Shown: positions 25,237 to 56,515 of the stretch, in pieces
Layout: each line of letters begins with the position of its first letter
Position numbering within the stretch: position 1 is the first letter of the stretch
DNA from: Escherichia coli
Lineage (GTDB): Bacteria > Pseudomonadota > Gammaproteobacteria > Enterobacterales > Enterobacteriaceae
Strand: one strand, 5' to 3'
DNA: 64,000 nucleotides
NCBI RefSeq assembly: GCF_003334405.1
Contig: NZ_QOWM01000017.1
Notes under the pieces: model-generated
What the model was told of the DNA's origin: nothing
Seen by the model: the letters and a program-made list of their open reading frames with translations, nothing else
The model's database searches: none
Position numbers and translations under genes: made by a program

Positions 25237-25482
25237 GGGGTTATGTCCGGTTCCCTGATATTAAATGGGGTGTGATGGTTTTTATTTTCGTTGTAATCAC
25301 ATAAGGCGCACATGATACCGGAGTTAATCATTTCAGGGGAAGAAGCGAACGGCGAGTTCTTGATGCTGGTTCCGGGAAAGATGCTGTTTTGCAGCTTTTG
25401 CGTGATGCTTATGAAGCAAGTACGCAAAATTGTATCGGTTGGCTAACCCTTCTTCTTTGGAGTCATAGTGCCCTTTAAGATT

Positions 25483-25505
25483 AAGATGTAATATAAATAC
25501 ATCTT
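25483..25505. promoter_or_regulatory. NsrR-type operator palindrome upstream of ygbA
   Basis: AAGATGTAATATAAATACATCTT (AAGATGTA ... TACATCTT inverted repeat) 18 bp upstream of the ygbA start; ygbA is a known NsrR target. Confidence 0.55.
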
Positions 25506-25522
25506 AATGAGGTGGAGGCAGC

Positions 25523-25876: not shown

Positions 25877-25912
25877 TATGCCGGACAGGCAGATCTGTCC
25901 GGCAATTTGCAG

Positions 25913-39825: not shown

Positions 39826-39908
39826 TTGCCCGATGCGCTGCGCTTATCGGGCCTTCATGGTTCGTGCGACATGTAGGCCGGATAAGGCGTTCACGCCGCA
39901 TCCGGCAC
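39826..39908. repeat. REP/BIME element (two inverted REP palindromes) between convergent hycI and ascB
   Basis: GCCCGATGCGCTGCGCTTATCGGGCC and GTAGGCCGGATAAGGCGTTCACGCCGCATCCGGCA, matching the E. coli REP consensus. Confidence 0.8.
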
Positions 39909-47180: not shown

Positions 47181-47263
<83 letters not shown>

Positions 47264-50039: not shown

Positions 50040-51554
50040 ATGAGTTTTTCCGTTGATGTGCTGGCGAATATCGCCATCGAATTGCAGCGTGGGATTGGTC
50101 ACCAGGATCGTTTTCAGCGCCTGATCACCACGCTACGTCAGGTGCTGGAGTGCGATGCGTCTGCGTTGCTACGTTACGATTCGCGGCAGTTTATTCCGCT
50201 TGCCATCGACGGTCTGGCAAAGGATGTACTCGGTAGACGCTTTGCGCTGGAAGGGCATCCACGGCTGGAAGCGATTGCCCGCGCCGGGGATGTGGTGCGC
50301 TTTCCCGCAGACAGCGAATTGCCCGATCCCTATGACGGTTTGATTCCTGGGCAGGAGAGTCTGAAGGTTCACGCCTGCGTTGGTCTGCCATTGTTTGCCG
50401 GGCAAAACCTGATCGGCGCACTGACGCTCGACGGGATGCAGCCCGATCAGTTCGATGTTTTCAGCGACGAAGAGCTACGGCTGATTGCTGCGCTGGCGGC
50501 GGGAGCGTTAAGCAATGCGTTGCTGATTGAACAACTGGAAAGCCAGAATATGCTGCCAGGCGATGCCACGCCGTTTGAAGCGGTGAAACAGACGCAGATG
50601 ATTGGCTTGTCCCCTGGCATGACGCAACTGAAAAAAGAGATTGAGATTGTGGCGGCGTCCGATCTCAACGTCCTGATCAGCGGTGAGACTGGAACCGGTA
50701 AGGAGCTGGTGGCGAAAGCGATTCATGAAGCCTCGCCACGGGCGGTGAATCCGCTGGTCTATCTCAACTGTGCTGCACTGCCGGAAAGTGTGGCGGAAAG
50801 TGAGTTGTTCGGGCATGTGAAAGGAGCGTTTACTGGCGCTATCAGTAATCGCAGCGGGAAGTTTGAAATGGCGGATAACGGCACGCTGTTTCTGGATGAG
50901 ATCGGCGAGTTGTCGTTGGCATTGCAGGCCAAGCTGCTGAGGGTGTTGCAGTATGGCGATATTCAGCGCGTTGGCGATGACCGTTGTTTGCGGGTCGATG
51001 TGCGCGTGCTGGCGGCGACTAACCGCGATTTACGCGAAGAGGTGCTGGCAGGGCGATTCCGCGCCGATTTGTTTCATCGCCTGAGCGTGTTTCCACTTTC
51101 GGTGCCGCCGCTGCGTGAGCGGGGCGATGATGTCATTCTGCTGGCGGGGTATTTCTGCGAGCAGTGTCGTTTGCGGCAGGGGCTCTCCCGCGTGGTATTA
51201 AGTGCCGGAGCGCGAAATTTACTGCAACACTACAGTTTTCCGGGAAACGTGCGCGAACTGGAACATGCTATTCATCGGGCGGTAGTTCTGGCGAGAGCCA
51301 CCCGCAGCGGCGATGAAGTGATTCTTGAGGCGCAACATTTTGCTTTTCCTGAGGTGACGTTGCCGACGCCAGAAGTGGCGGCGGTGCCCGTTGTTAAGCA
51401 AAACCTGCGTGAAGCGACAGAAGCGTTCCAGCGTGAAACTATTCGTCAGGCACTGGCACAAAATCATCACAACTGGGCTGCCTGCGCGCGGATGCTGGAA
51501 ACCGACGTCGCCAACCTGCATCGGCTGGCGAAACGTCTGGGATTGAAGGATTAA
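50040..51554 (+). CDS. norR: NO-sensing sigma54-dependent activator NorR
   Basis: Track ORF 49965..51554; start moved to [12 protein letters not shown] (504 aa); GAF domain, AAA+ GETGTGKE / GAFTGA, C-terminal HTH. Confidence 0.95.
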
Positions 51555-52516
51555 ATAATCCCGGCCTGATAGAAATCCTGCAGGTTTATTGCGCCGGTGA
51601 GTTTGCCGTTTTCATCCACCACCGGTGCGGCAGTGATTTTGCGCTTCATCAGGATCTCTTTGGCGTCGATGGCGCGACTTTGCGATTGCAACGTGGTGCC
51701 GCCGACCGTCATCGCTTCATTGACTGGCGTGGTGAGTGCGCCGCCGCCAACCAGCCAGCGACGTAAATCGCCGTCGGTAAAGACGCCTTGTACCTGTTGT
51801 TGAGCGTCACATACCGCCACCAGCCCCAGACCGGTGCGGCTGAGTTCCAGCATCGCATCCATCACGCTGGCGGTTAACGCCACCTGTGGGATGGCATCGT
51901 CACGGCGCATCAGATGATGCACTTTATTCAGCAAGCGAGCGCCCAGTGCCCCGGCTGGGTGGGAGCGGGCAAAATCTTCTTCATTAAATCCGCGCGCCTG
52001 CATGACCGCCATCGCCAGCGCGTCACCCATCATCAGGGTATTGACGGTGCTGGAGGTCGGCGCAAGGTGCATCGGGCAGGCTTCGCGTTCTACGGAGATA
52101 TCCAGCACCGCTTTTGCCGCCAGGCCCAGCGGTGACGTCGGTTTGCCGGTCATCGCCAGCAGCGCGATAGATTTATCTTCCAGACGCGGAATAATCAGAT
52201 CCAGTTCCTTCGCGCCACCGGAGTAAGAGATAAACAGCATCACATCGCGGCTTTCGATCATCCCCAGATCGCCGTGCAGCGCTTCTGCCGGATGGACAAA
52301 AAAAGCCGGAGTGCCGGTACTGGCAAGCGTTGCGGCGATTTTCTTACCAATGTGGCCCGATTTGCCAATTCCCGAAACCACCACTTTGCCTTCACAGTGC
52401 AGGATGATATTGGCGGCGCGAACAAAATCATCGCCCAGACGTTCCGGTAAACGGCTTGCTTCCTGCAACTCCAGCATTAACGTCTGACGTCCCGCGTTCA
52501 GTAGTGCTTCACTCAT
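51551..52516 (-). CDS. gutQ: D-arabinose 5-phosphate isomerase (SIS + CBS domains)
   Basis: Track ORF 321 aa; last gene of the gut/srl operon. Confidence 0.95.
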
Positions 52517-53282
52517 TGCTCTCTCCGGTTATGATCACATCGATCCCTTTCTCTTCCAGCGCCTGACGAAACGCCGGATCGATACCTGCGTCGGTAATCA
52601 GCTTATCGACGCTTTCAAGACTGCAAACTACGTTGGGGCTTTTACGGCCAAACTTTGATGAGTCCGCCATCAAAATCACTTCGCGCGCGGCATTGCACAT
52701 TGCCTTACTGACGGTATAAACCTCGTTAAAGGTGGTTACGCCCGCATTGAGATCGATGCCGTCGGTGCCCATAAACAATTTATCGAAGGTGAAATGCTCG
52801 AAGGCATTCTCTGCCAGTTGCCCGTGAAATGAGGCCGATTTTTTGCGAAACGTTCCGCCTGGCATCAGGATAGTTTGTTCGTTATCCAGTTCGGATAGCG
52901 CATTGACGATATGCAGGCTGTTGGTCATCACCGTGATGTTATTAAAGCGCGAGAGCAGGGGAACCATCTGCAAAACGGTACTGCCAGCATCAAGAATGAT
53001 CGAATCGCCATCATGGATAAAACTAACGGCAGCTTCTGCAATCAGCTCTTTCTTGTGGGTGTTGATGAGTGTTTTATGATCGATAGGCGGATCGGATTCC
53101 TCTTTATTCAACACCACTCCGCCATAAGTACGAATGACGGTTCCGGCATGTTCCAGAATGACCAGATCTTTGCGAATGGTTGTGCCTGTGGTGTCAAAGT
53201 ATTGCGCCAATTCTTCAACCGAGCATTTACCCTGCTTTTGCAGATACTCCAGAATGGCGGCCTGACGCTGACGAGGTTTCAT
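52509..53282 (-). CDS. srlR: DeoR-family glucitol operon repressor
   Basis: Track ORF 257 aa; N-terminal HTH. Confidence 0.95.
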
Positions 53283-53348
53283 GGGCGTGATTACCTGATT
53301 TAGGTTTCAAAATGATAACTTCGCAAGCAAGTAACATTCACAACGAAA

Positions 53349-53708
53349 TTATCCACGTTTCAGTTTAAGCGCCAATGATAGAGCATTCTGTGATAGTGGA
53401 TCATGGGGAAAGATCACATCGGGCTGTAAATCACCCGCATGCATACCGGTAATTGCGGGAATTTTTTGCGGTCGGGCGAAGACGGTCAGTCCTTTCATAA
53501 ACAAGGTGTCGACGATGCGCTGCTGATCGTCCAGCGCGATGGCGACCACGACCCGCGGTTTAAAGCGCCCGCTGGAACGGCCCACGCCAACCCGCCCTTG
53601 CTGGCATAGTGTGTCGAAGGCACGGTTAAAACGAGAAATTTGCCAGCCGCCTAAGGCCAGTTGCGCACACCAGGCGATAACGGCGACGGTGATGAGTGCG
53701 GATACCAT
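53349..53708 (-). CDS. gutM: Glucitol operon activator GutM
   Basis: Track ORF 119 aa; conserved position between srlD and srlR. Confidence 0.9.
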   Translation of the reverse strand: MVSALITVAVIAWCAQLALGGWQISRFNRAFDTLCQQGRVGVGRSSGRFKPRVVVAIALDDQQRIVDTLFMKGLTVFARPQKIPAITGMHAGDLQPDVIFPHDPLSQNALSLALKLKRG

Positions 53709-53812
53709 AACTTTTCCTTAATGTAGTGGCGGAAGTCCTGTATGCCTGATGAGCGTAGCGCATCAGGCATTCTATAGTCTCACGGAGATCCTTAATGGAT
53801 CTCCGCTGTTGA

Positions 53813-54967
<1,155 letters not shown>

Positions 54968-54977
54968 GTTTCAGCCT

Positions 54978-56515
<1,538 letters not shown>

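Follow-up and report, generated by a model that had tools for sequence, protein, structure and literature searches.

The spacer between srlD and gutM in the sorbitol (gut/srl) operon of Escherichia coli is probably a 3'-end and attenuation module, in which a single REP serves as a barrier to 3' exonucleases and as a partial Rho-dependent attenuator that separates structural from regulatory expression. We infer that the REP is the cause of the RNA 3' end, the Rho sensitivity and the abundance drop found across the spacer. A hairpin of different origin (hairpin A) lies between srlD and the REP; judging from its stability, its position 6-7 nt past the srlD stop and its conservation pattern, it serves most likely as a second barrier, particular to this locus, that would shield the srlD reading frame should the REP be breached. 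The REP itself belongs to a catalogued class of elements with a known mode of action, here at a locus without an earlier description; hairpin A and the universal pattern of a hairpin after srlD are modest new observations. No description of the function of the REP or the hairpin at this locus was found in the literature searched; the 3' end is tabulated publicly without discussion, and the region was reportedly sequenced by Yamada and Saier (1988).

Two hairpins in the srlD-gutM spacer

The operon srlAEBD-gutM-srlR-gutQ lies on the minus strand of the window (the whole 64-kb stretch of DNA analysed) and comprises srlA (55934-56497), srlE (54978-55937), srlB (54596-54967), srlD (53813-54592; stop TGA 53813-53815), gutM, the activator of the gut operon (53349-53708), srlR (52509-53282) and gutQ (51551-52516). 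The ORF list and translation identify srlD as the sorbitol-6-phosphate dehydrogenase gene (MG1655 b2705), and it is annotated at this locus in more than 5400 E. coli genomes. The spacer downstream of it (53709-53812, minus strand) has the 104 bp given in a preliminary description of this DNA and is identical in the window and K-12 MG1655; an 801-nt stretch around it is 100% identical to many E. coli strains. The copy of the K-12 MG1655 RefSeq annotation examined lists no repeat features at the locus. On the mRNA, the srlD UGA is followed by 6-7 nt, hairpin A, 11 nt, the single REP, 33 nt and the gutM AUG.

The inverted-repeat finder recovered both palindromes that the preliminary description had reported on the transcribed strand of the spacer, each 11 nt beyond the position it had given (53733-53757 and 53773-53793), so that its interval 53733-53793 cut the second palindrome in half; its REP string also carried one extra C compared to the actual 25-nt sequence. 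The first palindrome reads GCCTGATG-AGCGTAGCG-CATCAGGC on the plus strand (53744-53768) and forms the core of a single z2-type REP (53740-53770, minus strand), recognised by the inverted-repeat finder, folding and copy number. The extended stem of the REP (53742-53770) consists of two 13-nt arms (53742-53754 and 53758-53770) that are 92% complementary and enclose a 3-nt loop; the mRNA bears the iREP orientation, UGCCUGAUGCGCUACGCUCAUCAGGCAUAC, and in the order of elements along the mRNA the REP is given as AUGCCUGAUGCGCUACGCUCAUCAGGCAU. The second palindrome, GGAGATCC-TTAAT-GGATCTCC (53784-53804), extends to the perfect 9-bp stem of hairpin A, CGGAGATCC/GGATCTCCG (53783-53805, minus strand; 53797-53805 pairing with 53783-53791 around the 5-nt loop 53792-53796), detected by the inverted-repeat finder and by folding. 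Its mRNA form, CGGAGAUCC-AUUAA-GGAUCUCCG, starts 6-7 nt past the srlD stop. The linker between the two hairpins, GUGAGACUAUAGAA (53771-53782, minus strand), contains a weak -10-like TAGAAT/TAAAAT motif by sequence and relaxed promoter scan, and the alignment shows a 1-nt indel in it between E. coli alleles.

Both hairpins exceed chance expectation. The whole spacer RNA has a folding energy of -38.8 kcal/mol (z = -4.9), and the energies proposed as a check came out at -17.7 kcal/mol for hairpin A (z -7.1) and -18.2 kcal/mol for the REP (z -6.2), each folded by itself, with none of 200 shuffles as stable in either case. The neighbouring gutM-srlR spacer (66 nt) lacks such structure (z -0.17). 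The 64-kb window holds about 10 perfect palindromes with a stem of 9 bp or more, compared to about 2 in Markov-1 simulated sequences; those elsewhere in the window, with stems of 9-12 bp, include 15827-15854, 22641-22669, 25480-25508 and 25879-25904, and one of them, AAAAGGTCCGATGCCCATCGGACCTTTT, looks like a bidirectional terminator.

An intrinsic terminator was ruled out: both hairpins lack a U-tract behind them, as the preliminary description had stated (their tails read GUGAGACUA and ACAGGACUU), and the terminator scan called no terminator-like site in 53300-54300. In Rfam, the only match in the spacer was a sub-threshold one to NiCo-AnGGAG (RF03164; 27.3 bits, gathering threshold 64.5), which was rejected because the alignment covers just the terminal hairpin with its flanks and marks the remaining helices as non-pairing.

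The label "REP-like" in the preliminary description proved apt, as the element belongs to a dispersed REP family. The consensus allele at the locus, TGCCTGATGCGCTACGCTTATCAGGCCTAC (30 nt), which is also the allele found here in other Escherichia, occurs in at least 40 places per genome in 5426/5426 complete E. coli genomes. The element is an imperfect GC-rich palindrome that forms a stem-loop, its position is extragenic (within the 104-bp spacer), and its layout, GTAG...GATAAG...CGCATCAGGCA, matches the z-type REPs of E. coli, in which y, z1 and z2 types are distinguished (PMC3333891). A REP is present at the locus in 5407 of the 5426 E. coli genomes, and the exact window/K-12 allele in 2665 of them (about half). 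The proposed comparison with the REP consensus thus agreed in layout and copy number and failed at one point, the GTAG foot, which reads GTAT in the window/K-12 allele (53740-53743, plus strand) and is intact in the sister alleles of ATCC 25922, M160133 and other Escherichia species.

The foot is of consequence for mobility: TnpA_REP binding and cleavage need a GTAG on the 5' side of the palindrome foot (CTAC in the complementary strand), and a stem mismatch is also required for binding of the REP transposase (PMC3479197). This REP copy is therefore mutated and probably immobile, yet a true REP. Its stem retains the C.U mismatch; the adjacent G.U of the consensus allele is now G-C. The window/K-12 allele differs from the consensus by two substitutions, T to C and CTAC to ATAC, both derived according to the outgroups. 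Together they destroy the GTAG foot and close the neighbouring G.U wobble to G-C, and both add base pairs (domain energy from -12.4 to -17.2 kcal/mol). The K-12-type allele has shifted to a stronger stem and further from the motif that the transposase recognises.

The REP of the srlD-gutM spacer is an isolated copy, of which there are few (K-12 has 584 REPs, only 84 standing alone; PMC3333891). A BIME, that is, a pair of inverted REPs with a linker, was ruled out, there being only one REP-like unit in the spacer, and no second z2 copy was found within the 64-kb window. Elsewhere in the window there are two y-type REPs of canonical form (GCCGGATGCGGCGTRAACGCCTTATCCGGC), at 39877-39906 (minus strand) and 47181-47210 (plus strand).

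Hairpin A has no similarity to the y, z1 or z2 REPs. In 5409 of the 5426 E. coli genomes it occupies a single place, and for this reason the ideas that it is a repeat family or the decayed partner of a REP were rejected. It is specific to Escherichia and absent from the same spacer in other genera. In E. coli XD35 (NZ_CP089142.1; L086, 111-248), the IS5-like ISEc68 is inserted in hairpin A after CGGAGATCCATTAAGG (about window position 53790), replacing its 3' arm and leaving srlD cut off from the REP and gutM, which makes this strain a natural mutant with the hairpin A/REP arrangement disrupted.

RNA ends and transcript levels across the spacer

The published Term-seq data of Adams et al. (2021, PMC7815308) contain a reproducible RNA 3' end at MG1655 2828590 (plus strand), 31 nt upstream of the gutM start. 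Its flanking sequence, ...GCTCATCAGGCATACA|GGACTTCCGC, matches the window and puts the end at 53739 (minus strand), 3 nt downstream of the REP stem; the mapping of MG1655 coordinates to the window was confirmed on a second listed 3' end. The end has an average of 4665.7 reads (LB, OD 0.4), a Rho score of 1.91, flagged significant, and an intrinsic terminator score of 1.51, below the cut-off of 3.0; coverage upstream/downstream is 585/197 without bicyclomycin (BCM) and 309/199 with BCM (PMC7815308), a drop of about 3-fold across the site in the absence of the drug; read-through in this region rises when Rho is inhibited. The Rho score of 1.9 at the REP is modest: the strongest Rho-dependent position nearby lies inside srlR (2829346, score 3.7), and reporter fusions did not confirm some of the significant Rho scores (PMC7815308). 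In the Term-seq tables examined, the REP 3' end is listed in one condition only (LB, OD 0.4), in which the operon is poorly induced. An in vivo 3' end at the foot of the hairpin was thus found for the REP and not for hairpin A, at which the Adams 2021 Term-seq table lists none. The same data have a further 3' end within srlA, the operon's first structural gene (window 56271, minus strand; MG1655 2826058; 1412 reads; PMC7815308). It lies between the small hairpin GUGCAUUGGCAC, which directly precedes it, and GUUUGUCUUUU, and is a terminator-like site.

The transcript abundances published by Harris et al. (2026, bioRxiv 10.64898/2026.03.23.713779; baseMean values in the DESeq2 tables) are 14816 for srlD, 590 for gutM and 2494 for srlR, and gutM is flagged in what appears to be a REP-adjacent column of the same tables. 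The drop from srlD to gutM computed from these values is 11.6-fold per nucleotide. Different intrinsic decay of the gutM RNA could instead account for the srlD:gutM ratio.

These data bear directly on the suggestions of the preliminary description. Its proposal that the palindromes are mRNA stability or processing elements is borne out for the REP, with its Rho-scored RNA end 3 nt past the stem, and not for hairpin A, which has neither a listed 3' end nor a repeat family; the mapping of 3' ends that it had proposed gave the same division. Because a 3' end was found after the REP, the REP reading stands against the possibility, raised there, that no transcript ends lie at these positions. Its idea of differential expression of structural versus regulatory genes fits both the coverage drop of about 3-fold and the roughly 11-fold excess of srlD over gutM per nucleotide.

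We propose the following sequence of events, which is the established model for REPs within operons and has support from Dar and Sorek (2018) for Rho-dependent transcripts and from Harris et al. (2026) for REP325. Rho would release a fraction of the RNA polymerases downstream of the REP, the candidate release regions being the C-rich gutM leader, gutM and srlR, which has the strongest Rho signal. The gutM leader 3' of the mapped RNA end (53709-53738, minus strand; CUUCCGCCACUACAUU) is richer in C than in G and carries the Shine-Dalgarno AAGGA (53715-53719); 60-nt windows immediately 3' of the REP have a C/G ratio of 1.5-1.6, and this mild C>G peak amounts to a weak, rut-like composition only. 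The remaining downstream RNA would be cleaved, and 3'-to-5' exonucleases (PNPase, RNase II, RNase R) would trim it back and stall at the REP stem, with hairpin A as a back-up barrier for the srlD reading frame. A stable srlAEBD message would then accumulate while gutM-srlR-gutQ RNA stays scarce, and the outcome would be many transporter and dehydrogenase molecules per regulator molecule.

Several known systems resemble this arrangement. REPs that stabilise mRNA inside operons were reportedly described by Newbury, Higgins and co-workers in 1987 for malE-malF and hisJ-hisQ; shared with srlD-gutM are an intercistronic REP hairpin, its location on the transcribed strand and the lack of a U-tract. 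The malE-malF and hisJ-hisQ loci are said to be multi-REP clusters, unlike the single z2 REP at srlD-gutM, which is moreover preceded by an unrelated, unique hairpin. REP325 is also a multi-REP cluster; it gives a ladder of truncated transcripts, whereas a single REP copy with a modest Rho score of 1.9 is present at srlD-gutM, and the two share a REP between tandem operon genes, partial Rho dependence and an upstream-biased ratio. [quoted passage not shown] 2026, 10.64898/2026.03.23.713779).

The protective 3' stem-loops of Rho-dependent transcripts (Dar and Sorek 2018, PMC6061677) share with the REP a stable stem-loop without a U-tract, a 3' end directly downstream and C-over-G enrichment after it; that class was defined at the ends of transcription units, whereas the srlD-gutM element is operon-internal and must allow read-through into gutM, srlR and gutQ. 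To go by its title, the study of Espeli, Moulin and Boccard (2001) concerns BIME-associated Rho-dependent attenuation; a REP-containing spacer that lowers downstream transcription in a Rho-dependent manner would be the common feature, and BIMEs (inverted REP pairs with a linker), as opposed to an isolated REP, the difference. The intrinsic attenuators found between the structural and regulatory genes of Serratia sp. Ag1 and Rahnella perminowiae have the same position and stem strength as the E. coli element; unlike them, neither E. coli hairpin has a U-tract, the scan was negative and the terminator score was 1.5, below 3.0. Hairpin A may possibly be a positional descendant of such an intrinsic attenuator, kept with its T-run in Serratia and Rahnella.

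The spacer across Enterobacterales and within Escherichia

A scan of one genome per species gave 80 srlD loci, and the srlD-gutM spacer was extracted from 76 of them. One or more hairpin domains of -9 kcal/mol or stronger occur in every one of the 76 (median z -3.9), and the first hairpin starts a median of 5.5 nt past the srlD stop, at 15 nt or less in 89% of the 76. At the same loci, the gutM-srlR spacer is nearly fixed in length (62-71 nt in most) and unstructured in most (median z -1.4). The srlD-gutM spacer ranges from 41 to 612 nt, and its hairpin sequences are unrelated across genera: hairpin A and the z2 REP in the Escherichia species; other REP types or inverted REP pairs in Salmonella, Citrobacter, Klebsiella and others; a CCCTCTCCC...GGGAGAGGG repeat in several Enterobacter; and, in Serratia sp. 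Ag1 and Rahnella perminowiae, a hairpin with a T-run 7-8 nt past the srlD stop, called terminator-like by the scan.

Two observations were made in passing on individual loci. Where E. coli has the REP, five Enterobacter and related loci (L027-L029, L042, L043) have CCCTCACCCTAACCCTCTCCC-ACA-GGGAGAGGG, which presumably resembles the enterobacterial boxC repeat. In Citrobacter sedlakii NBRC 105722 (L006, 2001-3242), SrlD is 98.8% and GutM only 84.9% identical to the E. coli proteins, and the spacer is entirely different, with two other REP types; these differences suggest recombination or transfer with a boundary at the srlD stop or close to it.

Within Escherichia, the spacer diverges by 6.4% on average compared to 17.3% at the four-fold degenerate sites of srlD and gutM, that is, 2.7-fold slower than synonymous sites; gene conversion among REP copies or constraint on gutM ribosome binding could be part of the reason for this low divergence. 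Variable columns of the Escherichia alignment number 2/18 in the hairpin A stems, 2/5 in its loop, 3/12 in the linker (plus the indel), 3/29 in the REP and 7/33 from the REP to the ATG. Both changes in the hairpin A stems keep pairing only as U.G, on the mRNA strand. The alignment contains no double-sided compensatory changes in either stem; covariation therefore neither proves nor disproves the structure.

A broader reading, which we advance only tentatively and which may well not hold, is that a stable hairpin right after the srlD stop is a module of the gut operon, selected and conserved in position throughout Enterobacterales, that sets the amount of GutM/GutR relative to the structural proteins, its sequence being replaceable and mobile REPs being recruited and then "domesticated". 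The position would be filled by an intrinsic attenuator in Serratia/Rahnella, by REPs, BIMEs or boxC-like repeats in Salmonella, Citrobacter, Klebsiella and Enterobacter, and by the unique palindrome plus REP in Escherichia, where the K-12-type allele would have lost features of the kind that the REP transposase needs.

The presence of a REP does not by itself prove selection, because REPs are mobile elements that accumulate in permissive spacers. The same comparison was accordingly weighed against neutral selfish DNA, with the REP deposited by a REP-associated transposase, hairpin A fortuitous and the 3' end a passive by-product without a selected effect. Complete differences in REP families between genera and spacer lengths of 41 to 612 nt are as expected for gain and loss of mobile repeats, the lack of compensatory covariation fits as well, and REP effects are context-dependent, terminal REPs not lengthening half-lives globally (Harris et al. 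2026, 10.64898/2026.03.23.713779). However, stable hairpins occur in all 76 spacers, including those with non-REP and terminator-like elements, and do not accumulate in the adjacent gutM-srlR spacer; the spacer diverges 2.7-fold slower than synonymous sites; the stems of hairpin A are conserved where its loop varies; and the K-12 allele has changed toward a stronger hairpin and away from the transposase motif. Neutral deposition is, on this evidence, an unlikely explanation.

Other readings of the spacer, and its significance

Transcription might also start near the end of srlD, making the spacer the 5' UTR of a separate gutM-srlR-gutQ transcript, the hairpins a Rho-dependent leader attenuator or stabilising 5' stem-loops, and the 3' end a product of premature termination. 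An RpoD-holoenzyme binding peak is listed between srlD and gutM by genomic SELEX, in a table that gives no -35/-10 for this peak (PMC3946193), and the 3' end was retained in the 5'-UTR table of Adams et al., whose filter needs a mapped start 21-200 nt upstream (PMC7815308). Weak -10-like motifs are present (TAGAAT, 53769-53774; TG-extended GATTAT, 53912-53917), but the standard scan found no sigma-70 promoter in or near the spacer, the relaxed scan gave weak candidates only (the best 8/12 with a 15-nt spacer), and the text of the Cappable-seq supplement has no entry near the locus. Moreover, the upstream coverage (585) is far above the downstream coverage, which fits read-through from srlD over a new start. 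We regard an internal promoter as quite unlikely; it would be compatible with the exonuclease-barrier and attenuator model, the two not being mutually exclusive. Further downstream, a promoter-like TTGGCG-16-GATAAT is found at the gutM 3' end (53348-53375, minus strand), just upstream of srlR; this motif, together with a baseMean higher for srlR (2494) than for gutM (590), suggests that srlR has its own promoter.

Control might also be exerted on translation, with hairpin A lying within the footprint of the terminating ribosome, slowing termination or recycling and so lowering the SrlD yield or blocking coupling into gutM. REPs within about 15 nt of stop codons reportedly slow termination or recycling (Liang, Rudd and Deutscher, 2015). 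The stop-to-stem distance of 6-7 nt, the very stable stem of hairpin A (-17.7 kcal/mol) and the first stable hairpin at 15 nt or less from the stop in 89% of the 76 species (median 5.5 nt) are in keeping with such control; proximity to the stop is, however, equally expected of a protective 3' hairpin that keeps the whole reading frame, and we give translational control a small chance of being correct.

Protein binding sites on the DNA, the other role offered in the preliminary description, found no support for either element and are very unlikely: REPs and BIMEs are documented to bind gyrase, IHF and DNA polymerase I (PMC3479197), but gyrase binding is strong at BIME-2 and atypical BIMEs and IHF binding is at the inter-REP linker of BIME-1 (PMC3333891), while this locus has a single REP; and hairpin A, a perfect DNA palindrome that might serve as a GutR/GutM operator or, with its two GATC sites (53787-53790 and 53798-53801, 11 bp apart, one per arm), as a paired Dam/SeqA site, has half-sites in the window about as often as chance predicts (44 observed, 36 expected) and none in the srlA promoter region, an operator role being rejected on both counts. 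In Escherichia sp. E1V33, one GATC of hairpin A is lost and RNA pairing is kept through U.G, which would be a mismatch on the other strand; a constraint at the RNA level is therefore favoured.

The reading of the spacer as a 3'-end and attenuation module belongs to a class of mechanism known since the 1980s and recently re-examined genome-wide, and it opens no new field. If true, it would add one more testable case of unequal expression within one operon without extra promoters, here with many transcripts for the sorbitol transporter and dehydrogenase versus few for the activator and repressor. The comparative pattern is a useful natural test of whether REPs act as regulators under selection or are parasites that are tolerated.
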